Origin: a virus
Strand: one strand, 5' to 3'
Virus record (IMG/VR): IMGVR_UViG_3300037189_006220
Span: 1-64,000 of that record
Length of the DNA stretch: 64,000 nucleotides
A program made the translations under genes and the position numbers. Every line of letters begins with the position of its first letter. Position 1 is the stretch's first letter. Below, piece after piece: positions 19,511 to 49,262 of the stretch. The notes under the pieces were generated by a model, which saw only the letters and a program-made list of their open reading frames with translations, made no database searches and was not told where the DNA came from.

Positions 19511-19519
19511 GCGGAAGGC

Positions 19520-31103: not shown

Positions 31104-31127
31104 AGTTACAGCATACAGACCATTTGA

Positions 31128-33531: not shown

Positions 33532-33668
33532 TTTCGACTCCCTTCGTCGTTATCTAAATATAACACACTTTCAGTTAGATACAAAACTCAGAAGTTCCGC
33601 TATTTTCCTAGGTAGTACTTTTTCCGTGTAACCGTGACAAAACAAAAACCCGCCGAAGCGGGTGATTG

Positions 33669-33854: not shown

Positions 33855-33912
33855 TTGTTAGTTCCTTTGTTCAGTCGGATTGTTCCGATAGGGAGAGTTT
33901 ATCAGCCGGTGG

Positions 33913-34224
33913 CTAGTTTGTCAAGTCAAGTACGGGTGACTCCCAATGCCACACGATTTTGCTTGTGTTGCTATCAAGGACTCGGACTGCCGGAAGTGCC
34001 TTGCCCAACTCTTGTGCCTCGCTTGCGTGAGACAAGACATTACAAGCATAGTCACGCGCTCGCTCAATAGCCTCGTCCAAGTCCGTGTGAACAAAGCCGT
34101 GGCTTGGCTCTGATATCCGGTAGCCGTCCCATACGCCTTGTACGCGATAGACCGTAACCATTACCTCGTCCTCGCGAGCGTACTCGCTCCCGTCTTCGTT
34201 GTTTCGTCTGTTCGTCTTTCCCAT
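33913..34224 (-). CDS. Hypothetical protein
   Basis: 103-aa ORF with RBS. Confidence 0.6.
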   Translation of the reverse strand: MGKTNRRNNEDGSEYAREDEVMVTVYRVQGVWDGYRISEPSHGFVHTDLDEAIERARDYACNVLSHASEAQELGKALPAVRVLDSNTSKIVWHWESPVLDLTN

Positions 34225-34228
34225 TTTC

Positions 34229-34387
34229 CTAGTCCTGTTCCTTGTTACAAAACTCGCAATAAGTTTCGCCTTTGTCTTCGATAAACTTGTGTTCGCCCGT
34301 CTGATAACACTCGTGGCGACATTCTCCGTGGCAGTCAGACTCTCCGCAACTTTCGCAGATTCCGGTTGCTCCCCAACTGTTTACCAT
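34229..34387 (-). CDS. 52-aa Cys/His-rich peptide
   Basis: MVNSWGATGICESCG..CEFC; AAGGGAG RBS. Confidence 0.65.
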   Translation of the reverse strand: MVNSWGATGICESCGESDCHGECRHECYQTGEHKFIEDKGETYCEFCNKEQD

Positions 34388-34511
34388 TCTTGCTCCCTTG
34401 TTTGTTTCGGTGTGTTGCTTGATATCAAGAGTCTATACCATACCTCTGACAACTTACAAATCGACGCGCCGGAAGAAAGAATACCCGCCTTTCGGCGGGT
34501 ATCCTCACTTG

Positions 34512-34916
34512 CTAGTAGTCCTCGTCTTCGCCTTCCGGCACCGGCACGATTCGGAAGAACGCGCCCAACTCATCGTGGCTCGAACGGGAGCAAGTCAACT
34601 CTGTTCCGTCAAGCGTGAATCGGAGTGTGTAGTCGCTGTTGATTGAGAGTCCGTCGAGAATCTTGTCTGCCGTAATGTTCAGGAATCCTGAAACTCCGCG
34701 CCAGCCCATTCCGTATCCTTCGATTCGGACTCGGGTGTACTCGTCCCAACCATTTGCGTCAAGCCACGGAGCGAGAACGCAGTAGCGGAAGTTTTCTTTC
34801 TCGTCTTCCCAACAACCGTAGCAATAGTCGCTGGCAACGGATTCGCCCGTCTCTTCGTCGTAATACTCGCAAACGCACTGAGTCGTTAGCTCAAACTGAG
34901 TTTTCGTCGTTTCCAT
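34512..34916 (-). CDS. Hypothetical protein
   Basis: MGWRGVSG..SHDE motifs; cassette. Confidence 0.75.
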   Translation of the reverse strand: METTKTQFELTTQCVCEYYDEETGESVASDYCYGCWEDEKENFRYCVLAPWLDANGWDEYTRVRIEGYGMGWRGVSGFLNITADKILDGLSINSDYTLRFTLDGTELTCSRSSHDELGAFFRIVPVPEGEDEDY

Positions 34917-35029
34917 TTGTCTTTCCCTTGTTCGTTGTTTCTTGTTCGGAATTGCTTATACGGAGAGTCTATACCCTACCTCTGACAATGAGCAAGTGGA
35001 CGCGCCGAAACGCGTCCACTCGCTATGTC

Positions 35030-35332
35030 CTAGACCGTATCTAGGAAGGTGTATTCGGTGCGTCGGAGCGTGAGGTTGTAAACCTCGGGAGCAATTTCCA
35101 GCATCACCTTGCGGTCGAACGAAGTGTTCACTCCGTCCTTGACGACGATAACGTCAAAGCCATTTGCCGTACCAACGAGAGCCGAACCAAGTGCCTCACG
35201 AAGAATCTTCTCCGCTTGCTTCTTGCTTGCTTTGGCAGCCGCTTCGGCTTCCTTAGCGATTCGGAATTGTGCGAGTGCCTGAATAGCAACCGCGTCCAAC
35301 TCGACCTTAGCCGAGACTTCCTGAGTAGACAT
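35030..35332 (-). CDS. Hypothetical protein, paralog of 20209
   Basis: Ala/Lys helix then FDRKVM..PEVY..YTFL. Confidence 0.75.
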   Translation of the reverse strand: MSTQEVSAKVELDAVAIQALAQFRIAKEAEAAAKASKKQAEKILREALGSALVGTANGFDVIVVKDGVNTSFDRKVMLEIAPEVYNLTLRRTEYTFLDTV

Positions 35333-35490
35333 TGTGTCCCTTTCGACCTGCCAAACTTTGGCATTGAGATAAAGATACCGCATATGACTGACACTCGCAA
35401 ATCGACGTGAATCCCGGGCGTGTCGCGCCGTGGCGGAGATTACACGGAAAACCCGTACCTAAAAGAAAAACTCCCCGAAGGGAGTTTCCT

Positions 35491-35589
35491 TTAGTGAGTT
35501 GCGAATACGATACTCGCAACAACCGTGAGTCCAATGTCAAGGACTAGTAACGCTGTTGCTATCCTGAACAACTTTTGTTCCCGAGTCAC
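35491..35589 (-). CDS. 32-aa membrane peptide
   Basis: GTG overlaps upstream stop; hydrophobic; terminator follows. Confidence 0.45.
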   Translation of the reverse strand: MTREQKLFRIATALLVLDIGLTVVASIVFATH

Positions 35590-35981
35590 TATTCGACCTT
35601 TCCGTCATTACCGTATATGTTCTGGAAGTCTACCGCAATAGAGATAGCGTCGTCAAGCGTGTCGTAGACATTTGAGATTTCGTCTCCGTTTTCGTCGTCG
35701 GTGGAGTCCCAAACCTCAAACCAAGAGTTGTTTATCCACTCAAAGATACCGTCGTAGGTATTTCCCTTGTCTGACCAAGTTTGTAGTTCCTCGTCGGTCT
35801 TGATTCCGAAGTCCATAAGTTGGTCGGTGTAGCGGATAATGTGGCGCGTTCCTTTGTCGTCAATAGCGTTGATACGCATTTCGCCATTACGAACGACATA
35901 GAACCGAGGATTCGCCTCGTCTCGCCAAACCATTTGTGGCGTGTTGTGGTCGGTGTAAAAAGCCGAGTCCTGATTTGTCAT
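35589..35981 (-). CDS. Hypothetical protein
   Basis: 130 aa, coupled to upstream gene. Confidence 0.75.
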   Translation of the reverse strand: MTNQDSAFYTDHNTPQMVWRDEANPRFYVVRNGEMRINAIDDKGTRHIIRYTDQLMDFGIKTDEELQTWSDKGNTYDGIFEWINNSWFEVWDSTDDENGDEISNVYDTLDDAISIAVDFQNIYGNDGKVE

Positions 35982-36184
35982 TACTCCACCTCCTTGACAA
36001 TGCGAAACTCCAAGCCCTCGCCCGTGAACGCATCACGGTACTCGGACTCCTTGGAGAAGTAGAAGAAGATATTGGTATCGTCCTCATCAAGTGAGTTCCA
36101 CGCCTCGTCGATTGAGACGGTGGTCAACAGGTGTTCGCCAATGTTGTCCTTCCACTCAATGAGGACTTTCTTTTCGTAAGCCAT
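35981..36184 (-). CDS. Hypothetical protein
   Basis: ATG at 36184 with AAGGGA RBS. Confidence 0.7.
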   Translation of the reverse strand: MAYEKKVLIEWKDNIGEHLLTTVSIDEAWNSLDEDDTNIFFYFSKESEYRDAFTGEGLEFRIVKEVE

Positions 36185-36318
36185 TTCTTTCCCTTCGTCA
36201 TTTGCGGGCAACTGCCCTACTAAGAACCTTACCAAAATATGCGAGACTCCGCAAGTCAATGTTTTCCGTGTAGCCACGCCAAAGAAAAACTCCCGATTTC
36301 TCGGGAGCCTTTCGGTGG

Positions 36319-36642
36319 TTAGAAAGCGTAAGCCGGTTTCCAAAGTGCCACGCTGACCTCTTGCCACGCCTCTGCGTCGTGACCGCCGATGTTCCACTCA
36401 ATGCGTTCTTCCGTTTCTGGCTTGCCGAGTTCGTAGCGTTTCCAATCGTAGATTGTGGCAACGACTCCGCTGTCAAAGCGGATTACCCATTCCGTGGTGA
36501 CTTTCTCGTTTACGTCTCCGTCGTCCCAAGTCGGTGCGCCAAACACTGCCTCAATCTCGGCGCGAGTCGCTTTGACATATCCGCGGAGGCTCGTGCCATT
36601 GGAAGCATCAAGTGCCTCGTGTGCCGTGAGTGCCTTTGTCAT
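36319..36642 (-). CDS. Hypothetical phage protein (GTSLRG..TIYDWK..WNIGG)
   Basis: Recognisable motif set; cassette. Confidence 0.8.
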   Translation of the reverse strand: MTKALTAHEALDASNGTSLRGYVKATRAEIEAVFGAPTWDDGDVNEKVTTEWVIRFDSGVVATIYDWKRYELGKPETEERIEWNIGGHDAEAWQEVSVALWKPAYAF

Positions 36643-36713
36643 TTTGTGCCTTTCGTCATTTATGGGATTAGCCCCATACCCTAAGCGTATCAGAGTATGG
36701 GGCAATCCGCAAG

Positions 36714-37100
36714 TTACTTTTCTGCCGAGATGCTTCGGGCAGTTTCAGGTCGGTTCCAATCAGACTCCGACTCCAGAGTTGCCCAATCGTCTTCAGTCCA
36801 CTCGCTCGTGTCTACAAGCGCGAGTGACGAAGCATCTCCGTAGTTACCATCTTCGGCAAAGTAGGTGAGCGAGTTAGGAAGAACATTCCCATTATGGAAG
36901 CCAAGCGTATTGCTCAACTTTGCGTGGATATCCCAATCAAACTCATCACCATTTTCCATTACCTCATCGGGTCGAACCCAAGTCTGCGTCTCGGGGTCGA
37001 ACCAAGAGTTCGTGCCTTTCCACGCCATAAGAGTTTCGTCGTCGATGAAGAACCGATTGGTGTTCGTGTCGTAGTGGACTACGAAATGGATTTGCGCCAT
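36714..37100 (-). CDS. Hypothetical protein
   Basis: Cassette architecture. Confidence 0.75.
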   Translation of the reverse strand: MAQIHFVVHYDTNTNRFFIDDETLMAWKGTNSWFDPETQTWVRPDEVMENGDEFDWDIHAKLSNTLGFHNGNVLPNSLTYFAEDGNYGDASSLALVDTSEWTEDDWATLESESDWNRPETARSISAEK

Positions 37101-37255
37101 TTCATTTCCTTTCGTCGTTTGCTAGGCAACTTGCCTACATTCATTATTACAGGTATTGACCGCGAGCGCAAGTCCAAGTTCCTAAGCCGGAAGTTACACG
37201 GAAAAAACCTACAGATAAAAAAAAAGAAAGCCCCGCATTTCTGCGGGGCAATCTT

Positions 37256-37771
37256 TTAGTGGACTCGTTCCTCACAAGTCTCTAGAAACTCGCTATCCGA
37301 CGGCAGGTTATTCAGGTCAAACTGCGCGATAACTTTTCCGTCAGTCCAGACTTGGAGGTTGTCGAAGTCCAGCCGTACCGTGTACGCCCACTCGCAATCC
37401 GGCTCGGTGATGAAGTCACGGTTGTCCACAAGCGGAAGTTCCGTGAATGGACTCGTAGCAATCACCTCAAGGATTTTTCCTCCGGTGTCTCGGGAGAGTT
37501 CGGGGTAAGCGCGACTAAATCGCACCGACTCATCCATTGACATCATTCCGTCGCCTCGCTCTGAAAACTTGGCGTGGACTGCGTTCGCCTCATTCTCGGT
37601 AATCCAGCGTACTTGCGGAAGTCGCTCACGAAGTGTAGCGAGGTTGTCCGAGTTGCGGAGGAAGTTCAGAATGGTGATGCCCTGCCCCGAGGGGTAGCCA
37701 TCCCATTGACCGTACTGCGCGACGCGAACCTCGCCTTTATCAATGACCTGTACCAAGTGTCGTGTTCCCAT
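37256..37771 (-). CDS. Hypothetical phage protein (MGTR..QWDGYP..EWAY)
   Basis: Motif set; RBS. Confidence 0.8.
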   Translation of the reverse strand: MGTRHLVQVIDKGEVRVAQYGQWDGYPSGQGITILNFLRNSDNLATLRERLPQVRWITENEANAVHAKFSERGDGMMSMDESVRFSRAYPELSRDTGGKILEVIATSPFTELPLVDNRDFITEPDCEWAYTVRLDFDNLQVWTDGKVIAQFDLNNLPSDSEFLETCEERVH

Positions 37772-37912
37772 TATTGTCCTTTGTCGTTTGTCAAGCCGTG
37801 TTGCTTGATAACTAATCTTCTCATACATTTGTCAAAAACGCAAATCAAGTTTTTCCGTGTAACCGTCAAAAACGAAAAACCCCTACCGAAGTAGGGGAGT
37901 TCCGTTGGGGGT

Positions 37913-38149
37913 CTATCGGGCTGGCTCGTAGATTAGCGAACCTGCTCCGTTGCCTTCTGCGTCGCTTGACGGTATCACGAACGAACCGTCAGAGAAGAAG
38001 ATAACGAAAGCAACCGTTCCGCCGTCAAACCAGAAAAGGTTTTCGAGTTCGTCAGCCATAAGCGGTCTTACGGCTACAACGGTCTTTCCTACGAGTGAGC
38101 CGTACTCTGCCTTGATGAGGTCGAAGTGCGGGATTGTCGGTGTCGTCAT
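37913..38149 (-). CDS. Hypothetical protein
   Basis: DGS..PSSDAEGNGAG motif. Confidence 0.75.
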   Translation of the reverse strand: MTTPTIPHFDLIKAEYGSLVGKTVVAVRPLMADELENLFWFDGGTVAFVIFFSDGSFVIPSSDAEGNGAGSLIYEPAR

Positions 38150-38218
38150 TGTTGTCCTTTGTTAGGTGGGCTTGCCCCACGCCCCTATGTTACCAGAGCG
38201 TGGAGCAAACCGCAAGTC

Positions 38219-38605
38219 CTAGACTGTTGCGAGGGACTCGGAGGGAACCGAGACGCGAGTGAAGTCACTCGTACCCCAGTACATATCGTGCCCGATAGTC
38301 CTCGCCTCAATCTCGACGGTAGTGCCCGAGCGGTCGGTGTTCTCCCAGTCGCGGATACGCAGGTCGCCCACGATAACTACGCGGTCGCCCTTCTTGATTG
38401 ACTCCGCCGAGTTGCTGGCAAGGTTGCGGAACGCCGAAACGGTGTACCAGTTGGTGTCAACCGCTACGCTCTCGCCACGGTCATTGGTCTTGTATTGACT
38501 TGACGCGAGTCGGAACGAAGTGATTGCCAGACCCTCGGAGGTTACGAGGTGGCGCGGAGTCGTAGCAACGAGTCCGGTTACGGTAATGGTGTCTCTCTGA
38601 AACAT
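38219..38605 (-). CDS. ssb: Single-stranded DNA-binding protein (short, no acidic PF tail)
   Basis: ITVTGLVATTP..SFRLAS..WYTVSAF..KGDRVVIVGDLRIRDWE. Confidence 0.9.
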   Translation of the reverse strand: MFQRDTITVTGLVATTPRHLVTSEGLAITSFRLASSQYKTNDRGESVAVDTNWYTVSAFRNLASNSAESIKKGDRVVIVGDLRIRDWENTDRSGTTVEIEARTIGHDMYWGTSDFTRVSVPSESLATV

Positions 38606-38690
38606 TTTTTGTCCTTTGTGTCGTTTGTTTTTTGTTGAGCGGTTTGCCCTACACCCTAAGCATATCAGAGTGTAGGACAAAGCGCAAGTC

Positions 38691-39338
38691 CTACGCGGAA
38701 ACCGTTTCCCGAGGGCAGTCGGCAAAGAGGTAGTCCTCGTCGCCCCACATACAACCACGGCACTCTTGGTCAAGTGCCTCGTAGTCGGCGTGGCTTGCTG
38801 GAATGTCCCACTCCTTTACAAGAGTAGCAACTCCGTTTTCGATTTCGATAATGCCACCCCAGCCCTGCTCTTCCTCGAAACGGATTTCGACGGAGAGTTC
38901 AGGATGCTGTTCTGCGAGCGCGTTCCATACCGGCATAGGCGTAGACCACGCCGTGTTGATTTGATATGAGATTGAGCCATCGCCGTAGTCGGAGAAGTCT
39001 TCCACGCCAGCGTCCCACTTGGTATTCCAGTTGGAGTTGTTCCACTCGTACCAGTTCCACTCCGTATCACCGAGGCGTTTTCCATCCTTGTACCCCGAGG
39101 TTGAGAAGTAGAGTTCCCACTTGTCTTTTGGCGGAGCAATCAAGTTCCAGAATGAGAAGTCGCCCTCGTCAGAAGTCTCGGGAATGTACCACTCGCCTTC
39201 GACATTTTCGGGGTAGTTCTGTCCCTCGACCAGCGTGGTCTTCTGTTCGGGACGCGGTGCGGAAATCTTGGCGCGGAACGCCTCGACATCCTCGGGCTTG
39301 CCTCCGATGGAGACATAGTTGTAAACCCAGTTTGGCAT
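38691..39338 (-). CDS. DUF1281/YubB-like protein
   Basis: MPNWVYN..WYEWNNSNWNTKWD..TAWSTP. Confidence 0.8.
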   Translation of the reverse strand: MPNWVYNYVSIGGKPEDVEAFRAKISAPRPEQKTTLVEGQNYPENVEGEWYIPETSDEGDFSFWNLIAPPKDKWELYFSTSGYKDGKRLGDTEWNWYEWNNSNWNTKWDAGVEDFSDYGDGSISYQINTAWSTPMPVWNALAEQHPELSVEIRFEEEQGWGGIIEIENGVATLVKEWDIPASHADYEALDQECRGCMWGDEDYLFADCPRETVSA

Positions 39339-39425
39339 TTCTTGTCCTTGTCGTTTGTCGTTTTATTGGAGGCGGTGTGCCTCTTAGATAACCTTACCAG
39401 TTATTGAGGCACACCGCAAGTTCTG

Positions 39426-39950
39426 TTAGAAGTGGAAGTCCACCGGAACGAGATACCAGTCCTCGGCGTTGCCGTCGGCAATATCTTGGAGAAGGTACTT
39501 GAGCGTCGCCGTGTGGTTCTCAAGGTCAAGGAAGAACGAGTTGCTATTCCAGTTCTCCATAACCATATCGAGAGCCTTGCTAACGCTGTACCCAGCCATA
39601 CTGAACCGCGTCTCCGCGTCAGGCTGACCTTCGGTAGCGATATAGTTCTCAATCGCCGCATTGAGGTCGTACTCTTCGACTGCTTTACGAAGGTAGTTCA
39701 TCTCCTCGACGCGATTGTGGCGAACGCGAGCAATCAGTTCCTCAAACTTGAGAGGGTCTTCGACATACGAGATTGTGTTGACCTCGGTGTCGTGGTACTG
39801 GCTGTCGCCAATAAAGCGTCCACCACCGACTACGAACCAGTCGTACCAGTTTCCGTATGGTCGCTCGTCGCCCTCAAGTATGAGTTTGACATTATCAGTT
39901 GCTTCCTCGGCACTTTCGTCCTTGACCGCAATAAATTGTAGAGTGTGAAT
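39426..39950 (-). CDS. Hypothetical protein, apparent ATT start
   Basis: Frame is open 83 codons upstream of the called ATG; SD sits 8 nt before ATT. Confidence 0.6.
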   Translation of the reverse strand: MHTLQFIAVKDESAEEATDNVKLILEGDERPYGNWYDWFVVGGGRFIGDSQYHDTEVNTISYVEDPLKFEELIARVRHNRVEEMNYLRKAVEEYDLNAAIENYIATEGQPDAETRFSMAGYSVSKALDMVMENWNSNSFFLDLENHTATLKYLLQDIADGNAEDWYLVPVDFHF

Positions 39951-40033
39951 GTTTCCATTCCTTTCGTCGTTTGTATAATACGAACTTAGCCTATGGGGGA
40001 GAACCTTGTCAAGTCCTCCCCCACAAGCGGAGA

Positions 40034-40234
40034 TTATGAGACGGAAACCCAGCTCATAGTGGTACGGAGCAAGTGGTCGTAGTCACCGGCAGTTGCCTCA
40101 GTGAAGTAAGCGTCGCACTCGTTCTTTGCCACGCCAGCCCGCTTGAGAGCATTGGAGACGCGACCAAGAATTGCGAAGGCGTTTCCATCTTCGCCAATGA
40201 GGTTGACCTCAACCTCGGGGTACTTTACGGACAT
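40034..40234 (-). CDS. Hypothetical phage protein (GEDGNAFAILG..GDYDHLL)
   Basis: Motif; cassette. Confidence 0.8.
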   Translation of the reverse strand: MSVKYPEVEVNLIGEDGNAFAILGRVSNALKRAGVAKNECDAYFTEATAGDYDHLLRTTMSWVSVS

Positions 40235-40371
40235 TGTGTTCCTTTCGTCGTTTCGGGCTTTCTGCCCTACTAACAAGATAGCAGCTAATGCGTACCTTGT
40301 CAAATCCTTTTTATATTAGATTTTTCCGTGTAAATCGTGGCATAAGAAAAGGCGGGTTTCCCCGCCCCTTC

Positions 40372-40779
40372 CTAGTATGCGACCTGCGTTACGTTCTTAC
40401 CGAGCGAGTGTGCGTAGGTGTCAATCTCTTTCGCGAGGTTGACCTCAAAGGTTTCGCCCTTGTTGTTGACCGCGAGCGCGTATCCCTGAAACCAGCGATA
40501 ACCCTCCGAGCCAACCTCCATCAAGATTGCTACCCAGTCGTCAGCGAGGTGTTCCGCGAGAACCTGCGTCCACTCGATTTCGAGTTCCATCATGTCGTCG
40601 GTGTAGTAGTTCCACGACCAGCCGTCGCCGTCCTGATTGTCACAGAGCGACCACAACTGCTGTTCGCCGTCCTTCTTGCCGACAACCTGAACCGGATAGT
40701 TTTCCATGTCGGCAAGGAACTTTGCCTCGTCCTTGACCGCGAAGTAGTTGGTTCGCGACTGTCCAATGTAGTTCGTCAT
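40372..40779 (-). CDS. Hypothetical protein
   Basis: SRTNYFAVKD..MEVGSE; cassette. Confidence 0.75.
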   Translation of the reverse strand: MTNYIGQSRTNYFAVKDEAKFLADMENYPVQVVGKKDGEQQLWSLCDNQDGDGWSWNYYTDDMMELEIEWTQVLAEHLADDWVAILMEVGSEGYRWFQGYALAVNNKGETFEVNLAKEIDTYAHSLGKNVTQVAY

Positions 40780-40957
40780 TTCATTTCCCTTCGTGGGCGT
40801 TTGCCCTCACTTAGACAATAGCAGCTGAATGCCATCCGTGTCAAATCCTTTCTATAGTAACTTTTTCCGTGTAAACCTTCAGCGGATTTTTACACGGAAA
40901 AACCATCGGGACAAAAAAGAAATCCCCCCGAAGGGGGATGAGGGGATTTCTCTTTTC

Positions 40958-41158
40958 CTAGTCGTCCAGTTCGTCGCAGAAACGGAATGTGTTTCCGTCG
41001 CTGTCTGACGTGTACGACTCGGTGGTTTCTGCATACTCAAACTCACCGTGGACTTCGATTTGAGCCTGAGCAAGTTGCTTAGCTTCGTCTTCGTTCTCAG
41101 CCTCGACGGTCACGGTGTGCGTAATCGTCTCTTCGTAGGTAACTTCGTATCGAGCCAT
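40958..41158 (-). CDS. Small acidic protein (VEAENEDEA motif)
   Basis: Cassette architecture. Confidence 0.7.
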   Translation of the reverse strand: MARYEVTYEETITHTVTVEAENEDEAKQLAQAQIEVHGEFEYAETTESYTSDSDGNTFRFCDELDD

Positions 41159-41212
41159 TTTGGTTCCCTTTCGTTGTTGGTAGTTCTAACTTACCGTATC
41201 GGTAAGCCGGTG

Positions 41213-41398
41213 TCAAATCGTACTTGCGATAGCGAGCGAGACAACTTTTCCGCCTCCGTCAATGACGGTAGTGTAGTCGCCTTTCCAAAACTTCTTGCTC
41301 GCCTCGTGAAAGTCTGTTGCCTCCACATTGACCACGCCAATGCTAGGCTTGCCATCTTTGAGCGAGATGCTGGTAGTGGTGATTTGGTAGGTAGCCAT
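41213..41398 (-). CDS. Hypothetical protein
   Basis: Cassette architecture. Confidence 0.65.
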   Translation of the reverse strand: MATYQITTTSISLKDGKPSIGVVNVEATDFHEASKKFWKGDYTTVIDGGGKVVSLAIASTI

Positions 41399-41535
41399 TT
41401 TGATTCCCTTCGTCATTTGGTGGTAGCGGTTGCTACATAACCTACTTTACTGGCGCACGCCACCCTTGTCAAGTTAGAGTTCCAGCCGGGAGCAAACAGG
41501 GGGAATAGGAAGGGTAGCCCCCGGCTGGAAGTTTG

Positions 41536-43359
41536 TTATCGGCGTGAGCCAATCGCGGTCAGAGCGTCCGCAGCTGCCTTGCCGATTGCGTCGGAGGCAC
41601 TCGTTGCCGAGCCTTCCATGCGAACGAACTTGGCGGTCTTGAGTCCGTCGGTAAACCGCTTGCCGAACATCGCGTCCTTGCCCGCTCCAATCCAAAGTAC
41701 CGCCACGCCTGACTGCTCACAACGCTTGAGCCACTTCTGCGCCGCGCGTACCTCGTTGCCACGGTAATAGCCGTCCGAGACGATAACCAAGAGCCTCGCC
41801 CCGGTTCCGTGGAGCAAGTTCATCTGACCGTCGAGTGCCATGAAAGCGTCGTCGAATCGCTCGGTTGCGTCCGGTGCCGAGTAGACGCGAACCTTCTCAA
41901 GGTGCTGACCGGGCTTGAGCGTAGCGAATACGCCCGAGCCGTAGTAGACCATGCTCGCCTTGCCCTGAATCCGTCGGACTGCCTCGGAGAGAATCCATGC
42001 GGCGCTCGCCATCGGTTTCATCGCGGAGTTCATCGAGCCGGAGATATCAACCATAACGCCAACGGTCAGCGTCGGGTCGTCTACGTTCTTGTGCTGTACG
42101 CGCTTGAAAGGCTGTTCGTTGCCGGTCAGCCCGCGAGACTTCAACGCCTCGCCCTGAACCAGCGCACGAGTGCGGAGTCGTCCCGGTGGGATATCGCTAC
42201 CCGAAACCACGCGGTCACGGTCACGGTACTTCGCCTTGTCGAGTGCCTTGCCAATCTTGACTGCCGAGGCTCGCTCGTCTGCCTTGGGCGCACGCTCTTC
42301 GACCAACTCGGAGTAAGTCGTAGCGCACTCGGTTGGGCCAGTCCCGGCACCGAATACTTCGCTCGCCTTTGCCTTAGCCTTGGAACGCTCCTCTGCCTTG
42401 GAGTTGGAAGACTCAACCTGTTCGCGGTAGTCCTCGGTGGTCTGCTGTTGCTCGACATCCATGTTGCCCTCAACCTCTGCGTTCTCAGCAGCATCCTTGA
42501 GTGCCTCCATGAGTGCCTTGGCAAACTTCTGTCCGGGAGTAGGCTCGCCACTCTCGCCCTCGCCAGCCTCGCCTTCGCCACCGCTCTCGCCCTCTTCCTC
42601 GCCAGCCTCTTCTTGAGCCTCAACGATAAGAGACTCCCAGAGTTCAGCCAGTTCGTACATGCGCTCAACGTGAGCCGTAGCGTCCAGAGTCTGGAACTCG
42701 CGCCATACACTGCGGAAGTCCTCGAACTTCTCGGGTGAGAGAACCGAATCCAGAATCGAACGGAAGACTTCAACATCGTCCTCAAGCAGAACGCCAGCGT
42801 CAACGCGAGCGTAGGTCAGTCCGAGAATGTGAGCTGCCTGTCGAACAGTAGACATCTTCGCCAGACCCTTCTCGTCAGTATCTCCGAGAACAATCTCCAG
42901 AGCGCAAGTACGCAGGAACGCCTTGTTGTCCGGGAAGTGCTGAATACCGCGTCGCTCAATGCGCGACTCCTCAAGAAGGTGGAGTGCCTCGAATGCTCGG
43001 GGAGTGAGTCGAGCCGCAGCTGTGGGCAAGTCCCACGTTGAGAACCGAGCGTGCATTGCCTCGTGGAAGATTGCGCCAGTTGCCTTGGGGAACTCGAACT
43101 GGTTGGTGCGCTGACGGAGGTCGCCAACCTGAACCGGGGTAACGTGACCGAAGGCAACAGTAGTGTTTACCTCGACCTGTGCGCTCGCCGGGTTGAAGGA
43201 CGCAGGTGCGCCGGAGGCTTTACTTGCCTCGCTCCCGATGTAAGCGATGATATCAGTGCGCTCTGCCCACTGGTTAACGATTGAACCAATCTGGCTACCA
43301 GTTGCGAGCCAGTCATAATCAGTTGCCGAAATCTCGACGGTAGTTCCGAAGTGCGTCAT
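41536..43359 (-). CDS. HExxH metallopeptidase-like plus VWA domain protein (MoxR partner)
   Basis: FHEAMHARFS, EESRIE, MIDAS DISGSM, VSDG. Confidence 0.9.
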   Translation of the reverse strand: MTHFGTTVEISATDYDWLATGSQIGSIVNQWAERTDIIAYIGSEASKASGAPASFNPASAQVEVNTTVAFGHVTPVQVGDLRQRTNQFEFPKATGAIFHEAMHARFSTWDLPTAAARLTPRAFEALHLLEESRIERRGIQHFPDNKAFLRTCALEIVLGDTDEKGLAKMSTVRQAAHILGLTYARVDAGVLLEDDVEVFRSILDSVLSPEKFEDFRSVWREFQTLDATAHVERMYELAELWESLIVEAQEEAGEEEGESGGEGEAGEGESGEPTPGQKFAKALMEALKDAAENAEVEGNMDVEQQQTTEDYREQVESSNSKAEERSKAKAKASEVFGAGTGPTECATTYSELVEERAPKADERASAVKIGKALDKAKYRDRDRVVSGSDIPPGRLRTRALVQGEALKSRGLTGNEQPFKRVQHKNVDDPTLTVGVMVDISGSMNSAMKPMASAAWILSEAVRRIQGKASMVYYGSGVFATLKPGQHLEKVRVYSAPDATERFDDAFMALDGQMNLLHGTGARLLVIVSDGYYRGNEVRAAQKWLKRCEQSGVAVLWIGAGKDAMFGKRFTDGLKTAKFVRMEGSATSASDAIGKAAADALTAIGSRR

Positions 43360-43492
43360 TTTGGTTTCCTATTCCCTTGTTTGACTTTGTATCTACAACT
43401 TACACCCTGCGAGCGCAAGTTGTCAAATCGTCGTTTAGAAAAGTGGGTGCCGGGGAAACGACGAAGAAAACCCGGCACCCGATTCCGGCGAA

Positions 43493-44533
43493 TTAGATTC
43501 GAGCCGGAAGTGCGCTCTCACCGTAGGCACGAGAGAAAACGTCCTGAACAATTGGACGGTCAATCTCGGGTGCTACTGCGAGAAGATTGGCGATTGCGAA
43601 CTTAGTACCGTAGAGGCTCTCGGTCTTCTTGAAGGCGAGAAGTTCACGGAACTGCGGTGCCCAACTTACCTCGTCAGAGGCTTGTTTCTTGGCGAGGTTC
43701 TGCGCGGCGGTTACTGCTTGAGTTGGTACTCCCAACTTACGAGCGAGCGACCAGTCAGTCGTCATTTCAACCTGCAAGGTGAAACGCGAGAGAAGAGCCT
43801 CGGACAAGCGCACGCCGGGTGCGTTCGGGTTGGTCGCGCCGACGACGTAGAAACCGTCCTTCGCCTTGACCACGCCACGCTCCGGGTTCGCCGTCACGTT
43901 GTACTCTTTGCGTCCGTCCATAAGACCGTACACAATCGAGAGAACCTTGGGGTCAATCAGACCGACCTCATCGATGAGCAGTGGGGCACCAGCCTCAGCT
44001 GCTTTGATAAGAGGTCCGTCCTGCCAAGACCAGTCGCCACCCTCGGTGCGAACGTAGCCACCAACAAGGTCAGCAACTTCGGTATCGCCCGAGCCAAGAA
44101 CCGTAAACAGTTCTTCGCCAAAAGCAGCCTCGACCAGAGCAGTCTTACCGCAACCGGGTGCGCCGTACAGCAGTACGAACAGCCCCTCGTTACGAGCAGT
44201 CTTGAGAACCGAGACATCCTCGATGTCAGTCCACTTCCGGGTGTAGTAGTAGTCACCATTGGGACGCAGGTACTTGTCCTTGGTCTCGCCAGTGTTAGCC
44301 ACGCCAGTCACAGCAGGAGCCTCCACAGTTCCAGAAGTCGAACGAGTGCGTGCAACGCTACCCTTGTTTGCGTACTCATTAAGGATAGCAGTTACGCCAA
44401 CCGAAGACTGCAACATGGTTGCCCCGAGCAGTGTAGTGAGACCGGGGAACAGGTGTTCCACGTTTGGTTCTTGCGTGACCTTGCGAGCCATGTCTGCGCG
44501 AAGGATTTCGCGATTAACAATTGTGTGTGTCAT
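43493..44533 (-). CDS. MoxR-family AAA+ ATPase
   Basis: GAPGCGKT, WQDGPL, LLIDE, ATNP, ALLSRF. Confidence 0.9.
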   Translation of the reverse strand: MTHTIVNREILRADMARKVTQEPNVEHLFPGLTTLLGATMLQSSVGVTAILNEYANKGSVARTRSTSGTVEAPAVTGVANTGETKDKYLRPNGDYYYTRKWTDIEDVSVLKTARNEGLFVLLYGAPGCGKTALVEAAFGEELFTVLGSGDTEVADLVGGYVRTEGGDWSWQDGPLIKAAEAGAPLLIDEVGLIDPKVLSIVYGLMDGRKEYNVTANPERGVVKAKDGFYVVGATNPNAPGVRLSEALLSRFTLQVEMTTDWSLARKLGVPTQAVTAAQNLAKKQASDEVSWAPQFRELLAFKKTESLYGTKFAIANLLAVAPEIDRPIVQDVFSRAYGESALPARI

Positions 44534-44577
44534 TTCTTGTCCTTTGATTTCGTCGTTTAGTTAACGCTGTTGCGTTA

Positions 44578-45072
44578 CTAGAGAGTGTACCCTGCTGGTG
44601 CAGGAGTTGTCAAACTGACCGGCTCATTGAAGAGCGAGTCAGTGAATCCTCCCTCTTTACGAGCAACCAGTACTCGGCGGAGCAAAGCGTTCGGAGTCTT
44701 GGTGTCCGCGATGTCCATGAGGTCGTCAGTGGTCATTTCAACCATGAGCGGAGTCTTGTACATCAACCACTCGCCAGCTGCATAGCCGGAGAGGAACGAG
44801 GCGATTTCTCGAACCAGTGGTGCAGCGAGGTCAACAGCAACCTCGTAGTTCATCTCTGGCTCCATGATTGGGTCAGCCTTGGAACTGTAGAAACGCCATG
44901 AGCGACGCTGAACAGTGGGGTCGATGTTACGAGTGAGCAGTACCATTTTCTGGCGCATGCCAGTAATCGGGTTCATCATCGGAGGGATGACGAGTACCTG
45001 TGACGTGTCGCGCCCACGGCGCATTTCCATGTACAGGGCATTGCCTACAATTTTCTTTGCCATGAGTGGCAT
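44578..45072 (-). CDS. Hypothetical protein
   Basis: 164 aa with the conserved leader motif. Confidence 0.7.
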   Translation of the reverse strand: MPLMAKKIVGNALYMEMRRGRDTSQVLVIPPMMNPITGMRQKMVLLTRNIDPTVQRRSWRFYSSKADPIMEPEMNYEVAVDLAAPLVREIASFLSGYAAGEWLMYKTPLMVEMTTDDLMDIADTKTPNALLRRVLVARKEGGFTDSLFNEPVSLTTPAPAGYTL

Positions 45073-45117
45073 TCCTTTCGTCGTTTTTGTCTTGCGCTTT
45101 CTGCGCTACTAGGTACC

Positions 45118-45375
45118 TTACACGACTACCGCTTGGATTGCAAATCCTAGACAACTATCGCATGTCGATACTGCATTGTGTTCCGAAACAAGAATCATTC
45201 CGGTGGGCGTTAAGTCAACGTCCTGAGAGAACTCTATCAGAGTATTGCATAGCTCGCAACTCATACTCAAGAACTCAGTGTTAGTAGCGTCGGGGCCGGA
45301 TTCGAGCAACCCAGCAATGTGCGCTAGCTCAACGTCGCGGGGAGATTTAACTACGTGTAGTTCTAGATGTTCCAT
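45118..45375 (-). CDS. Small CxxC protein
   Basis: CELC..CDSC. Confidence 0.5.
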   Translation of the reverse strand: MEHLELHVVKSPRDVELAHIAGLLESGPDATNTEFLSMSCELCNTLIEFSQDVDLTPTGMILVSEHNAVSTCDSCLGFAIQAVVV

Positions 45376-45532
45376 GCCCGAGAGTCTATTACATATTTTT
45401 CCGTGTAACTGGAATTGAAAAAGCCCCCCGCAGGAAGGCAAAACCGCGGGAGGCTCTTTCGTGTAAGAAGCGTGCACAACCTCGTTGTTGTACACGGAAA
45501 AAATCTATCACACTTTTCCGTGTACTGCTGAA

Positions 45533-45751
45533 CTATTTCACGTTTCGTTTATGTGCCCAGTCCTTGGTCATGTGGTAGTGACCTTTGTTGAAAGCGCATT
45601 GATAGATGCGGACAGACTTTGAAGCGATTTGTCCAACCAGTGCCTTACGAGCATCGTGCTTTGTGCGGTAGCTGACCTTATCGGCTTCCTCGCAGAAGTC
45701 GCGACGGAGTCGCTCGGTTCCTTCTTCGTTTCCGGTTTCGTAATGATTCAT
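45533..45751 (-). CDS. Small Zn-finger-like protein
   Basis: C..KVSY..A..RIYQC..HYHMT. Confidence 0.65.
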   Translation of the reverse strand: MNHYETGNEEGTERLRRDFCEEADKVSYRTKHDARKALVGQIASKSVRIYQCAFNKGHYHMTKDWAHKRNVK

Positions 45752-45763
45752 CTCGGTTCCCTT

Positions 45764-45979
45764 CTATCGGTTGATTATCCATGTCATCCCACTGTCATCG
45801 GTACGCAACTGCCCAGCTACGTGGCGCAACTGCATGATGGCACGGTTCGAAGACTGAGCATCCGGGTACGAGTCGAAGATGTACTGCCGTTGGTACCCGT
45901 TCTCACGGAACTTCTTCCGTTCCATCTCGAGCAGGTCGAGCAGGAAGGCGTGTAGGGATATCGGTTGCATGCGTCCCAT
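45764..45979 (-). CDS. Hypothetical protein
   Basis: 71-aa ORF below a TTGACC promoter. Confidence 0.55.
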   Translation of the reverse strand: MGRMQPISLHAFLLDLLEMERKKFRENGYQRQYIFDSYPDAQSSNRAIMQLRHVAGQLRTDDSGMTWIINR

Positions 45980-46011
45980 ACTACCCGCACGCCCCCCTCA
46001 GGTCAAGTCGG

Positions 46012-46803
46012 TCAATTACCGTTTACACGGAAAAAGTGCGGTTGGCGTTTCGCAAGCTCGGTTAGCGTGTGTTCGTCCGGTTCACCCGTTGCATTGATGA
46101 GTCCGATGCTCCGTTGGAACTTCGCGAGCGCGGACTTCGTCTTCGCGTTGAAGATGGCGCGGTCTGCGTTGCGTAGTCCAACTTCAGCGGAAAGCGCATA
46201 CTGAACCGCTTCAACCGCACGCCGTATATCCGGCTTGGCGCTCGCCGTTGCTTGAGCGGTGGTGCATCGGTTGAGATGTGCGGGGAGCACGGTTATTAAG
46301 TTTGATTTTTCCGTGTAACCGTTGGCGCTCGCCGGTTTCTTTTTCGGACGGGCAAATCCCAGAACGTCATACTCATGCCGTTGACGTTCATAGATTCCGT
46401 CATTAGCGGTTCCACCCTGCGGAAGTCCCGTTGAGACTTGCGCTTCCACTGAGCGGAACATACGGTGCTTCCGCCAGCTGGAAACATCGGTTACGATGCC
46501 AACGTGCGGAGCGGACATGTTGTCACCCGTTGTGAAGTTGAAGAACACAATATCACCCGGTTTAGGTACACGGAAAATACGGTTGCTCTGGATGTACTCT
46601 GCGAGCGCGGTTACCGTGTGCGCGTGCGAGATGCCGTTGTAGTCGGTTTCGTGTAGCACGGTATCAATGAAGGAACCGTCCCAGTTGAACTGCGAACCAT
46701 TATAACCCGTTGCTGAGCCGAACGGTGTTAGCCCGTTACGCGCGGTGAACCCGACGTAAGTGCTCGCCGTCTCTACTAGCGGGTGTGCCTTAAGCTTTCT
46801 CAT
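46012..46803 (-). CDS. CHAP/NlpC-like domain plus PG-binding domain, catalytic Cys apparently absent
   Basis: NWDGSFID (WC expected), PKPGDIVFF, HVGIV; C-terminal TKSALAKFQ..ATG. Confidence 0.7.
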   Translation of the reverse strand: MRKLKAHPLVETASTYVGFTARNGLTPFGSATGYNGSQFNWDGSFIDTVLHETDYNGISHAHTVTALAEYIQSNRIFRVPKPGDIVFFNFTTGDNMSAPHVGIVTDVSSWRKHRMFRSVEAQVSTGLPQGGTANDGIYERQRHEYDVLGFARPKKKPASANGYTEKSNLITVLPAHLNRCTTAQATASAKPDIRRAVEAVQYALSAEVGLRNADRAIFNAKTKSALAKFQRSIGLINATGEPDEHTLTELAKRQPHFFRVNGN

Positions 46804-46859
46804 CCGTCGATTTTTCCGTGTAAGGGTCGGGCACGCCTCGCCCGCAGGTGCACTGTCCG

Positions 46860-47051
46860 TTACACATTATAGGAACCCTTCTCTGCGTTACACAACGCTT
46901 CGAGCAATTCTACCAGACGGTTAGCCTCGAACGCAAGCTGAGTCAAGCGCACATGCTCAAGTCGAGTTGTTGCATTTTTAATGTCGCGTGAAAGATTATC
47001 CGCGTGCACCCTTGCGCTCGCCGTTACCTCTTCTAGCTCAGGCATCTTCAT
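46860..47051 (-). CDS. Small helical protein
   Basis: Overlaps the upstream stop. Confidence 0.55.
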   Translation of the reverse strand: MKMPELEEVTASARVHADNLSRDIKNATTRLEHVRLTQLAFEANRLVELLEALCNAEKGSYNV

Positions 47052-47979
47052 CTTCTTCCACTTCGACGGTTACATAACCGTAGTTGGACGCATCTGCTTC
47101 TTCATCAGACGGTTCGTCTTTTGATTCTATAACAATAATGTCATCTTCGTTGTTGCGACTCACTAGTGACGGTTGTAAGCGATTAAGCCGTTCCATAATT
47201 AGCTCGGCTGCGGGACGGACTTCAACTTCGAGTTTACCGTCGATTTCAATTCCGCCTCGCACGCCAGCACGGTCAAGGAGTTCGGTTGCAGCTTTCAGCT
47301 TGACGGGTTCAGACTCAGCGGTTTCCATCAGGTGTTCGAGAATCTCTACTGCCTTAGGTGCTGATTGGTATACCCGTTCGCGTGCGCGGGCAACAGCCCC
47401 GGAGGTATTGCTCGCCCGTGTGCCCAAGTGGACTCGACACAGGTCGTCGTCATTGGTTCGCCCCGTTGTCCACATCATGCATCGCACGCCGTCTGATTTA
47501 ATCTTTCGGCATCGAGCGGGCGGGCCAGAGAACTGCGGTGACTTCTTCGGGTCGGTCTTCCTCGCCTCTCGAATCCGAATCCATGTGCGGGTCGCCTGTG
47601 ATACCCACATCGGAATAAGGTGGTCGGCTTGTTCCTCAACAAGGAGAGCTTCCTCGGTTAGGTAGTCCGAGTTTTTGTCGCGCTCGTCGGTTAGTATAAT
47701 ACGCCGGTCTTCTAGAGAGCGAGCGGTCTTCGCCTGTTCCATCTCCGGGGAGAGTACGCGGATGTTGCCGGTTGGCTGACCGTTGTCATTATAAATAACT
47801 TGGTAACCCATGCGAGTAGCTCGGAGGATGGAGCGGTTCTCGTAGGAGTCTTCGCACACGCCGCGTTCTACTTCTTCGATGCCGTAGAGACTGAGGTCGG
47901 GGCGGAGGTCGAAGGGTGCGTCGGATAAGTCAGCATATTCCATATCAGGAATATCTTCTTTGTCAAGCTCTGATGACAT
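47038..47979 (-). CDS. Putative terminase small subunit-like protein
   Basis: RC..SDGVRC..CRVHLG Zn knuckle and VKLKAATELLDRAG motif. Confidence 0.55.
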   Translation of the reverse strand: MSSELDKEDIPDMEYADLSDAPFDLRPDLSLYGIEEVERGVCEDSYENRSILRATRMGYQVIYNDNGQPTGNIRVLSPEMEQAKTARSLEDRRIILTDERDKNSDYLTEEALLVEEQADHLIPMWVSQATRTWIRIREARKTDPKKSPQFSGPPARCRKIKSDGVRCMMWTTGRTNDDDLCRVHLGTRASNTSGAVARARERVYQSAPKAVEILEHLMETAESEPVKLKAATELLDRAGVRGGIEIDGKLEVEVRPAAELIMERLNRLQPSLVSRNNEDDIIVIESKDEPSDEEADASNYGYVTVEVEEDEDA

Positions 47980-48089
47980 GGGGATATATTCTCCAAAACG
48001 AATATTTGGCGCGCGGTGCGAGACGGAAGGCATTTTGCCCTCAAACCCTAATAATACACCCCTGTTTATAAAGGTGATTTCCGGCTTTT

Positions 48090-48374
48090 TTAGTTCTGAC
48101 GTTTTGGCGGTTGAATGTTGTATTGCTGACGGTGAATCTTTATAGACTTACGGCACTTGTTGCACTTACAACTGGGCCATTTCTGACCCTTATTCTCATT
48201 ACACTTGCGACAAGAAATGACATAGTTAAACCGTTCCGAGCGACCACCGAGACTCGATGGCACGATGTGGTCTACGGTTCTGTCGCGGTGGACTTTGATT
48301 TCAGACTCGCAGTAATGGCAGAACTCGGGGGGGTCGCCGGGGAGATGTCTCCGTGCTCCGTGCCTATTTCCCAT
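48090..48374 (-). CDS. HNH endonuclease
   Basis: CHYC..TVDHIVP.SLGG..N..SCRKCNENK. Confidence 0.85.
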   Translation of the reverse strand: MGNRHGARRHLPGDPPEFCHYCESEIKVHRDRTVDHIVPSSLGGRSERFNYVISCRKCNENKGQKWPSCKCNKCRKSIKIHRQQYNIQPPKRQN

Positions 48375-48379
48375 AAACG

Positions 48380-48706
48380 CTAGAGGATAACGTGGCTAGA
48401 CAGCAGAGCATCCAGAGCACCTCGCGGTTTAGCTCCGGGAATCCGAGTCACAATCTCGGCATTGTTGATAAGCAACATAGTTGGAATGGAGTTGATGCTG
48501 TATTGCTTTCCAAGTTCTGGTTCTTCGTCAATGTTTACTTTGACAATCTTGAGGTTGTCACCGTATTGGTCAGCAAGAGAATCGAGAATGGGGTTCATCG
48601 CGTTGCACGGACCACACCATTCTGCCCAAAAATCAACCAACACGAATCCGTGGTGGAGGACTACATCTTGCTCAAATGTCTCAGTCGTTGTCTTCACTAC
48701 TGGCAT
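48380..48706 (-). CDS. trxA: Thioredoxin
   Basis: LVDFWAEWCGPC, SIPT. Confidence 0.95.
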   Translation of the reverse strand: MPVVKTTTETFEQDVVLHHGFVLVDFWAEWCGPCNAMNPILDSLADQYGDNLKIVKVNIDEEPELGKQYSINSIPTMLLINNAEIVTRIPGAKPRGALDALLSSHVIL

Positions 48707-48917
48707 TGTCGTCTCCTTCAGTTTCTGGTTCTGCGTCGTCATTTAATTTTACAGGTTCAGAGCCATGCTTAGAAAAGTTGTCGCAAACATTACAGCCACA
48801 GATATATTCTTTGCCAGCCCACTCAAGAACTGGCAAACATTCAGCATGACTGTTGGTGATGCACCAGCCACAGGGTGCTTTCATAAAGACTTTCTCAGCC
48901 ATGACCTATCCGTTCTG

Positions 48918-49262
48918 TTAGTTAAGCGGTGGGTCAATCTTACTGGAGATAGAGTCTTCTAGCAAACCTGATACTCGAATCTTGCTTTTGTTGTACCACT
49001 GGAACACAGCATCGGTTACTTCATTAAACGAGTAATCCGAAAGATTCTCAGAGTCTGCCGGATTGACGACTGCTAATCGGAAGAGTTTTATCATACGACC
49101 TAATTGCTCAGGTCCACCGACGCTCATCATTTCTTCGACACTCGATACGGGCATCTCATAAAGCTCAATAGCCTCTAGTGAGATGTTCTTAGTCTCGATA
49201 TGAACAGTCTTAATATCAATCTCGAAATCATCAAGTTCGCTCACTTGGAATCCACCTCCCAA
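48918..49262 (-). CDS. Hypothetical protein, possible paralog of 58919
   Basis: L.EMP..MI.L..A pattern. Confidence 0.6.
   Translation of the reverse strand: MGGGFQVSELDDFEIDIKTVHIETKNISLEAIELYEMPVSSVEEMMSVGGPEQLGRMIKLFRLAVVNPADSENLSDYSFNEVTDAVFQWYNKSKIRVSGLLEDSISSKIDPPLN

Follow-up and report, generated by a model that had tools for sequence, protein, structure and literature searches.

Why should a gene for an AAA+ ATPase end in a hairpin with an unusually large loop, and does that loop have a partner? The question is raised by a hairpin at 43445-43480, on the minus strand of a 64,000-nucleotide stretch of viral DNA (the window, which is the first 64 kb of IMG/VR virus record IMGVR_UViG_3300037189_006220, a record of 120,518 bp with direct terminal repeats). 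The hairpin follows a gene for a CobS/MoxR-like protein (43493-44533, minus strand), and the original prediction had described it as a 10-bp stem with an unusually large loop, antisense to a motif in the leader of its own gene and in several other leftward leaders. The sequences examined here point to a real, conserved design in which the 3' end of a message would exert antisense control over a 5' leader. Two neighbouring genes share it, and their 3' loops probably let each message limit its own translation. That the loop pairs with a translation initiation region, mainly that of its own mRNA and hence in cis, is the reading we put first, with a probability of roughly 45%.

The stop codon of the CobS gene (TAA, 43495-43493) is followed on the minus strand by a 12-nt spacer and then by the hairpin. 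Sequence and RNA folding both gave a stem of 10 bp, formed by GGGTGCCGGG (43480-43471) and CCCGGCACCC (43454-43445) and containing nine GC pairs, which closes a loop of 16 nt, UUUUCUUCGUCGUUUC (43470-43455, TTTTCTTCGTCGTTTC), in agreement with the dimensions first proposed for it. The hairpin alone folds at -20.6 kcal/mol, and the 111-nt region around it had a minimum free energy (MFE) of -41.9 kcal/mol, with z = -3.9 against shuffled sequences. Beyond the stem lies the tail ACTTTTCT (43437-43444, minus strand), a weak and interrupted U tract with five U in eight positions (ACUUUUCU). Other terminator-like hairpins in the same gene block have loops of 3-4 nt and longer T runs, and the 16-nt loop is thus atypical. 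It exceeds the short loops expected of intrinsic terminators (3-8 nt in our terminator scan), and the hairpin was missing from that scan because the loop limit was set at 8. The best reading of 43445-43480 is nevertheless as the predicted 3'-end, terminator-type hairpin of the CobS/MoxR-like mRNA. Rfam covariance models applied over 31000-49000 covered neither this hairpin nor the one after the neighbouring gene with any family; the sole match at E<=1 in that region was a sub-threshold istR hit elsewhere, at 35464-35580.

The core of the loop, TTCGTCGTTT (43456-43465, minus strand), is the exact reverse complement, over 10 nt, of the box AAACGACGAA at 44549-44558 in the leader of the same gene, 15 nt upstream of the ATG at 44533, and this box is the proposed partner of the loop. 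The further claim that several other leftward leaders carry the same target also held. When up to one mismatch was allowed, 24 copies of the box were found in the window against 5.85 +/- 2.44 expected, a number reached in none of 100 shuffles. All but two of these (22/24) lie on the minus strand between 32167 and 47122, in transcribed-strand orientation, and the sole plus-strand copy inside this block is the CobS hairpin loop itself, while the rest of the 120,518-bp genome outside the window holds only two one-mismatch copies. Exact minus-strand copies start at 33251, 34903, 37111, 39963, 40244, 44549 and 45077, and six of these seven directly precede an AGGRA Shine-Dalgarno (SD) sequence and a start codon; about eight further leaders carry the box with one mismatch. 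The box sits within a repeated promoter-leader cassette, which runs from a -35 (cTTGACA or cTTGCGG) and a -10 through a small 5'-end hairpin to AAAYGACGAA abutting AGGRA and the start codon, and it is therefore part of a shared 5' leader; the SD-proximal portion of the box is conserved in distant relatives.

In the CobS cassette, the candidate sigma-70-like promoter (44584-44613, minus strand; TTGACA, an 18-nt spacer and TACACT) was assigned by consensus match, at 10 of 12 positions. The predicted 5' end of the leader folds into a small hairpin (UAACGC-AACA-GCGUUA, 44562-44577, minus strand), and alignment by eye placed comparable small hairpins upstream of the box in most cassettes. The SD sequence AAGGA (44540-44544) lies 6 nt upstream of the ATG (44533-44531). 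Between the small hairpin and the SD sequence, the box was predicted to be single-stranded, with an opening cost of 0.15 kcal/mol, compared with 0.6 kcal/mol for the loop, and the duplex between the loop and its own leader was calculated at -13.1 kcal/mol.

The original prediction had counted the CobS hairpin as a second instance of an anti-leader design, and the first instance proved to be the hairpin after the next gene on the same strand, which encodes a 607-aa vWA/CobT-like protein (41536-43359). This hairpin (41480-41530, minus strand) was recovered in a genome scan for strong large-loop hairpins and has a 14-bp stem and a 23-nt loop, UACCCUUCCUAUUCCCCCUGUUU (41494-41516). Its loop is antisense to the leader of its own gene through 11 exact nucleotides plus 5 nt across a 1x2 internal loop, and so covers the SD sequence; the target (43366-43382, minus strand) consists of AAACA (43378-43382), a single A, and GGGAAUAGGAA (43366-43376) over the ribosome-binding site. 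The 11-mer GGGAAUAGGAA occurs exactly twice in the 120-kb genome, once in the vWA leader and once, inverted, in the vWA loop. Opening costs for the pair were 2.4 and 0 kcal/mol, the duplex was calculated at -20.3 kcal/mol, and shuffling of the loop gave p = 0.0015. The putative promoter of the gene (43397-43426, minus strand; TTGACA at 43421-43426, an 18-nt spacer and TAAGTT at 43397-43402) was read by eye and is unlisted in the promoter scan. When the loops of the 102 large-loop hairpins of the genome were compared with the 4 kb upstream of each, the longest complement was mostly 7-8 nt, and one of at least 10 nt was seen in eight, two of which were the CobS and vWA hairpins. As a separate explanation of the SD-like complement of the vWA loop, an opposite-strand gene starting after it was considered and rejected, as no start codon follows.

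A protein-guided scan of IMG/VR yielded 61 loci with CobS-like genes of 56-74% identity; the comparative counts below derive from these 61 loci and three more, which are not phylogenetically independent, and start codons in the open reading frame (ORF) scans were picked by a simple SD rule. A GC-rich hairpin, often large-looped, follows the CobS gene in most of the 61 loci, and many of the loops are complementary to a motif in the leaders of the same phage, the motif itself varying among phages. Loop and leader sequences changed together: a GGACGAC leader is matched by a GTCGTCC loop in L006/L007, ACCCACTACG by CGTAGTGGGT in L011, GACCACCACGA, which comprises the start codon plus codons, by TCGTGGTGGTC in L014, CACCTAC(T) by AGTAGGTG in L037/L063, GGACACCTA by TAGGTGTCC in L038, GACACCCAATG by CATTGGGTGTC in L041, GATACCCATG by CATGGGTATC in L051, CACCCAAA by TTTGGGTG in L055, CACCCAAG by CTTGGGTG in L058-L060 and GACACCCACA by TGTGGGTGTC in L062. 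Within the related CACC-type set the flanking positions vary jointly in leader and loop. When non-redundant CobS hairpins with loops of at least 8 nt were compared with upstream initiation regions by loop shuffling, 16/36 reached p<=0.05 and 8/36 reached p<=0.01. The vWA hairpins, 20 of which were set aside for a small loop or weak stem, matched their own leaders at p<0.01 in 11 of the 25 tested, through 9-13 nt, and in the published genome of DSL-LC01, an uncultured Actinomycetia phage, the loop of the CobT terminator matches the leader of its own gene over 12 nt.

An unbiased scan was then applied to 64 loci (L006-L066, L103, L136 and the block of the window), in which the best large-loop hairpin past the stop codon of every ORF of at least 60 aa with an SD-like start was compared with the leader of that ORF, giving 119 non-redundant pairs. 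At p<=0.01, 9/40 CobS-like genes and 12/19 vWA genes had a loop complementary to their own leader, compared with 0/60 for all other genes (1/60 at p<=0.05), and the design is thus specific to the CobS/vWA gene pair.

The loop of the window also recurs elsewhere. Its 12-nt core TTCTTCGTCGTT is present in hairpin loops of L038, L041, L044, L045, L047-L051 and L054, where the same AACGACGAAAGGA leader is found, and in 11 aligned hairpins this core is invariant while stem positions 3-9 take several pair types, including double changes (GC/AT, CG/GC/TA). A pattern scan of IMG/VR for TTTCTTCGTCGTTT gave at least 117 matches in at least 115 stretches; among the matches listed, 105/117 were without a flanking stem and chance-like and 12 had a stem of at least 6 bp, the convincing ones being L103 (two hairpins), L104 (the same contig as L038) and L136, which add at least three further stems. 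In L103 the region directly past the CobS homologue (2069-2180) holds two tandem hairpins with the loop (C)TTTCTTCGTCGTTT(C) on unrelated stems, and a third hairpin, whose loop is 16 nt long, comes next. Altogether the loop of the window was seen on at least eight different stems. A loop that stays constant while its stems vary, always in the same orientation, marks a hairpin that works in the form of single-stranded RNA, with its loop on display. The original prediction had named loss of loop conservation as what would speak against it, and conservation was found in both forms, the same loop being kept on these stems and the loops of other relatives matching their own leaders. Across 581 non-redundant large-loop hairpins, antisense words were enriched over sense and reversed controls, TCGTCGT occurring seven times (ACGACGA 0, AGCAGCA 0, TGCTGCT 2) and CCTTTC 13 times (GAAAGG 0, CTTTCC 7, GGAAAG 4). 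A mobile element as the source of the recurring loop was rejected, since the stems differ between copies.

Three further observations were made on the CobS hairpins and their surroundings. In the window, MFE structures include a hairpin across the CobS stop codon (43483-43509, minus strand), and its counterpart in L018, L019 and L028 holds the stop codon within a loop that resembles an anti-SD sequence (AACTCCTTCC). In L022-L024 and L034 a tRNA-gene-like sequence (GGGGAGATAGCTCAGTTGG...) lies about 30 nt past the CobS hairpin. The 9-mer GACACCCAA, the complement of the CobS loop of L041, occurs four times within 2.2 kb (2767, 3301, 3689 and 4902), namely in two initiation regions, within the coding region of the gene upstream (codons K-T-P-N-K) and at the -35 of the next promoter; it is found at the same places in L044-L050, and the intragenic copy co-varies, as GACACCCAC in L062 and GACACCTAA in L038.

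The mechanism that we infer from the complementarity, predicted accessibility, conservation, co-variation and restriction to two genes seen here would run as follows. The stem would present the 16-nt loop as a single strand to the AAACGACGAA box beside the ribosome-binding site; after transcription of the 3' end, the loop would pair with the initiation region of its own message, and such pairing in vivo would limit further ribosome loading and repress translation. The duplex may also mark the RNA for decay or expose it to a double-strand nuclease. Domain searches found no phage-encoded RNase III or double-stranded RNA-binding domain, and a host enzyme would therefore be needed for cleavage; with the loop-leader duplex stacked on the stem, the helix would measure about 20-25 bp. 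The vWA/CobT-like mRNA would use the same device, its loop being directed against its own unique ribosome-binding site, and the CobS loop could also reach other box-carrying leaders. Ordinary folding cannot predict leader-loop pairing of this kind, because pairing with the stem closed makes a pseudoknot. The pairing of 5' and 3' ends is read as acting in cis because the leader of the same mRNA is a partner that is always close by. Cis action is favoured at least as much as trans action because the vWA target is unique to its own leader and the signal is confined to two genes. In the relatives, the own leader of the vWA gene was the best partner in 7/19, tied in 6/19 and worse than another in 6/19, so that it was best or tied in 13/19, and the L041 loop is directed at the initiation regions of two cistrons that apparently share the transcript ending in the hairpin.

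A number of observations weigh against this reading. In the window, the own leader is not the best partner of the CobS loop, as other box leaders pair with it at -15.1 to -17.8 kcal/mol; in ACGACGAAGGGA-type leaders (for example that of the gene starting at 33531) the loop could pair onward through the SD sequence by way of G-U pairs, at -17.8 kcal/mol. In the CobS leader 5 nt separate the end of the paired box from the SD sequence downstream of it, and simple SD occlusion is thus less obvious for CobS than for vWA; in addition, 10 contiguous pairs within a closed 16-nt loop are sterically demanding. Composition-preserving shuffles of the CobS loop gave p = 0.026 against the four initiation regions within 2.5 kb upstream, a still modest p = 0.007 against its own leader alone, and a weak p = 0.064 against the whole 2.5-kb upstream region, the shuffle null being high because a T-rich loop meets A-rich leaders. 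Many relatives are without the feature: 12 CobS hairpins are small-looped and were set aside, eight that hold the -35 of the next promoter in the loop or 3' arm (L027, L030, L031, L035, L036, L039, L056 and L066) have no complementarity, and Microbacterium phage Pumpernickel has no hairpin. The own leader was a worse match than another leader in 33/40 CobS hairpins. In a matrix of cognate and non-cognate loops and leaders, 11/35 foreign loci matched the loop of the window as well as the window's own locus did, and the matrix was clean only for L011, L038, L062 and L063; it is uninformative for the window because the leader box is shared among phages, and the loop-shuffle tests were therefore used instead. 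Complements of the loop also lie within 130 nt downstream (p<=0.05 in 13/35 loci, p<=0.01 in 2/35), which makes the pairing partner ambiguous. The promoters, 5' ends and termination are themselves predictions, and a search for RNA sequencing runs matching 41400-45200 found none, the two runs that matched being DNA, one of them perhaps from the source sample itself. By itself, then, the CobS case is suggestive; comparison of the sequences across relatives makes it solid.

The alternative that survives best is trans action, in which the GC-rich hairpin would outlive the CobS mRNA and the accumulating fragment would shut down translation of the leftward block with AAACGACGAA boxes. It is possible, if doubtful. 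A seed with several target mRNAs is available, as the box is exact in at least six leaders and has one mismatch in about eight more, and other leaders pair with the CobS loop as well as or better than its own, a relation repeated in most CobS hairpins of the relatives. In L038 and L041-L054 the hairpin with the loop of the window follows a different gene, whose homologue in the window lies at about 36.7-37.1 kb, and a separate canonical terminator comes after it; the tandem copies on different stems in L103 are likewise as in multi-seed small RNAs (sRNAs). Set against this, the vWA hairpin is directed at a sequence found in its own leader alone, and the frequency with which that leader is the best or a tied partner describes a gene-specific pattern.

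A local partner is a much weaker candidate. An extra copy of the box (AAACGACGA, 43428-43436, minus strand) lies 8 nt past the hairpin, shortly before the next -35 and at a place where no leader is expected, and it provides a 9-nt complement of the CobS loop within 130 nt downstream (shuffle p = 0.018). In read-through RNA the two could form an H-type pseudoknot that would stabilise the 3' end or control read-through into the following gene, and the upstream leaders would then have no part in it. Some of the downstream complements in relatives are of the same kind, such as GACACCCA(A) at 8-13 nt past the hairpin of the L041 group and CACCTACTC in L063. Most of these cases, however, belong to one clade, the L041 group, in which the site overlaps the -35 of the next promoter, and the stricter threshold was reached in only two loci. 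Moreover, the vWA hairpin of the window is without such a site, the same loop occurs in L041 and L048 without a box within 40 nt downstream, and the site would be transcribed only when termination fails. It is therefore improbable that the local box is the partner.

Slightly less probable again is that the hairpin has no special function, being a rather poor ordinary terminator, with chance or descent behind the likeness of its loop to the antisense of an A-rich repeat. The modest shuffle value of the CobS loop (p = 0.026) and the matches of at least 10 nt in eight of 102 large-loop hairpins, of which the CobS and vWA hairpins supply two, would allow this, but both adjacent genes show the feature, the loop is kept while its stems differ, leaders and loops change together from phage to phage, and the unbiased scan returned 21/59 CobS/vWA pairs compared with 0/60 for other genes. 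Least likely of all, and very improbable, is that a phage DNA-binding protein uses AAACGACGAA as its operator and the loop is one more inverted site: although the box is an asymmetric intergenic repeat in one orientation relative to transcription (22/24), like the stoperators of mycobacteriophage L5, which are one-orientation repressor sites, and the inverted boxes at 43428-43436 and 43456-43465 flank the 3' arm of the hairpin, this is countered by the fixed register between box and SD sequence, with the SD-proximal part conserved across distant relatives, by the inverted copy always lying in the loop of a hairpin with compensatory stem changes, by other loops matching gene-specific leaders and even start codons (L014, L041), which an operator would not predict, and by the repeat in this genome that does look DNA-like, ACACGGAAAA, being different and present in both orientations.

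Pairing of the 3' loop with the initiation region of its own message thus stays our first choice, and a broader picture may be drawn from it, though only tentatively. A freshwater actinophage-like group might build "self-closing" CobS and vWA/CobT mRNAs, in which a terminal loop antisense to the own initiation region serves as a transcription-timed limiter of translation. The 3' end would fold onto the 5' end as transcription finishes, so that each message would be given a fixed number of ribosomes; loop and leader would drift together over evolutionary time; and the CobS loop, through the shared box, would couple the limiter to an early-gene regulon.

The assignment of the two genes rests on domain and family searches. 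The 346-aa product of 43493-44533 matched Pfam AAA_5 (E = 2.9e-20) and the PHROG families "ATPase" (3.4e-56) and "porphyrin biosynthesis" (3.9e-25), and is therefore described as CobS/MoxR-like. Its closest named relative is the AAA ATPase of DSL-LC01, with 72.5% identity, followed by proteins of Microbacterium and Gordonia phages. The product of the next gene matched Pfam VWA_CoxE at E = 0.00096, under the curated cut-off, and its DSL-LC01 homologue is annotated as "cobalamin biosynthesis protein". An actinobacterial host has been predicted for DSL-LC01, and RNA elements go unmentioned in the accessible text of that report (PMC10611076); Actinobacteria are the likely hosts of the phages considered here. 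At the nucleotide level, megablast of 41500-45100 against phage records found no similar DNA. The window also encodes a T4-type large terminase and a portal-like protein, as identified by domain search, a phage ORF with a full histone-deacetylase domain (29478-30443, minus strand; Pfam Hist_deacetyl, E = 2e-42) and an Api92-like protein with a DUF1281_C domain (38691-39338).

Other repeats and promoter arrangements were seen in the same DNA. The repeat ACACGGAAAA, with up to one mismatch, has 36 copies in window positions 20000-47000 against 4.95 expected, in both orientations, often just upstream of a cTTGCGG or cTTGACA -35 and as inverted pairs at 40862-40902 and 45490-45525; its arrangement suggests a site at which a regulator acts on the DNA, in contrast to the leader box with its single orientation. 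The window contains 20 exact copies of the DnaA-box consensus TTATCCACA, where 0.37 would be expected, and all but one of them (19) lie at 18900-20900, in both orientations and some in hairpins, a cluster that is likely, judging from the sequence, to be a replication origin using host DnaA. Promoters embedded in hairpins, with the -35 in a large loop or in the 3' arm, were found at about 32480-32520, 39990-40030 and 39372-39417 of the window, in L013, L027, L031, L035 and L066, and in Gordonia phage GodonK (L069, 4360-4410). At these sites the terminator of one gene overlaps the promoter of the next, and the large loops are without antisense to leaders.

How does the proposed device compare with what is known elsewhere? 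Its nearest counterpart is found in Staphylococcus aureus, in the icaR mRNA, in which an anti-Shine-Dalgarno sequence in the 3' untranslated region (UTR) is reported to pair with the ribosome-binding site of the same mRNA, to block the initiation complex and to create an RNase III substrate, 5'-3' pairing in bacterial mRNA being termed there "a singular example" (PMC3868564). Here too a 3'-UTR sequence is complementary to the ribosome-binding region of its own mRNA (10 nt for CobS, 11+5 nt for vWA), the vWA loop (CCUUCCUAUUCCCCCUG) is likewise C/U-rich and covers the SD sequence, and there is evolutionary support, in the form of different loop-leader pairs and scan counts. The two differ in architecture, as the icaR 3' UTR is long and its motif is not placed in a terminator loop in the accessible text of that report, whereas the phage 3' UTR measures only about 50 nt, with the terminal loop as the motif. 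They differ also in that the CobS loop is directed at a box upstream of the SD sequence and not at the SD sequence itself, and in that the phage case involves two adjacent genes and co-variation across a virus group and is known from sequence alone.

More generally, the 3' ends of bacterial mRNAs have been reviewed as regulating their own translation or decay or as supplying trans-acting sRNAs (PMC5502269, as far as its accessible text goes). Control from the 3' end of an mRNA is the likeness between such regulatory 3' UTRs or 3'UTR-derived sRNAs and the design described here. In familiar examples of 3'UTR-derived sRNAs the seed is found in unpaired RNA that precedes the terminator, and their action is often Hfq-dependent; in contrast, the phage seed is inside the terminal hairpin loop, and the probable hosts are Actinobacteria. 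Retroregulation of int by lambda sib, through RNase III cleavage of a downstream hairpin and decay from the 3' side, offers a phage parallel in that a downstream hairpin controls a gene from its 3' side, the difference being that sib is not known to involve loop-leader pairing. A search of open-access papers and preprints found no phage precedent for terminator loops antisense to leaders.

Terminator loops as functional determinants are known from the Escherichia coli sRNAs SdsR, RseX and ArrS, whose loops are described as controlling fepA post-transcriptionally, "likely without base-pairing", by acting on the structure of a long 5' UTR, with Hfq and RNase E needed (PMC11979758, accessible text). 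The likeness lies in intrinsic terminator loops that carry the function; unlike those loops, the phage loops are long and overtly complementary to their target. The vWA-type loops (CCUUUC, UCCUUCC) resemble in turn the pyrimidine loops of the C-rich-loop sRNAs known from Gram-positive bacteria, among them Mycobacterium tuberculosis 6C (PMC6486639) and the Rsa RNAs (PMC2790875), which are reported in the accessible parts of these sources to have anti-SD-like loops and to bind mRNAs without a chaperone. Those RNAs, however, are independent sRNA genes with many targets, whereas the phage loops are mRNA 3' ends with gene-specific flanks, and the CobS loop, unlike them, is U-rich and directed at a non-SD box.

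If the proposed pairing is real, it would be a simple, portable means by which a 3' end sets the level of expression, the natural compensatory variants would form a comparative data set for its mechanism, and terminator loops would deserve inspection in the annotation of phage genomes; the AAACGACGAA-AGGA leader is also singled out by the analysis as a hallmark of genes regulated together in a block. Set beside the systems above, what appears from the sequences to be new is the placement of an antisense motif in the terminal loop of a short 3' UTR, its confinement to the phage CobS/vWA pair and its natural co-variation across many genomes. The logic would be that of icaR in a compact phage form, co-varying across dozens of uncultured viruses and serving an AAA+ ATPase and its vWA partner.

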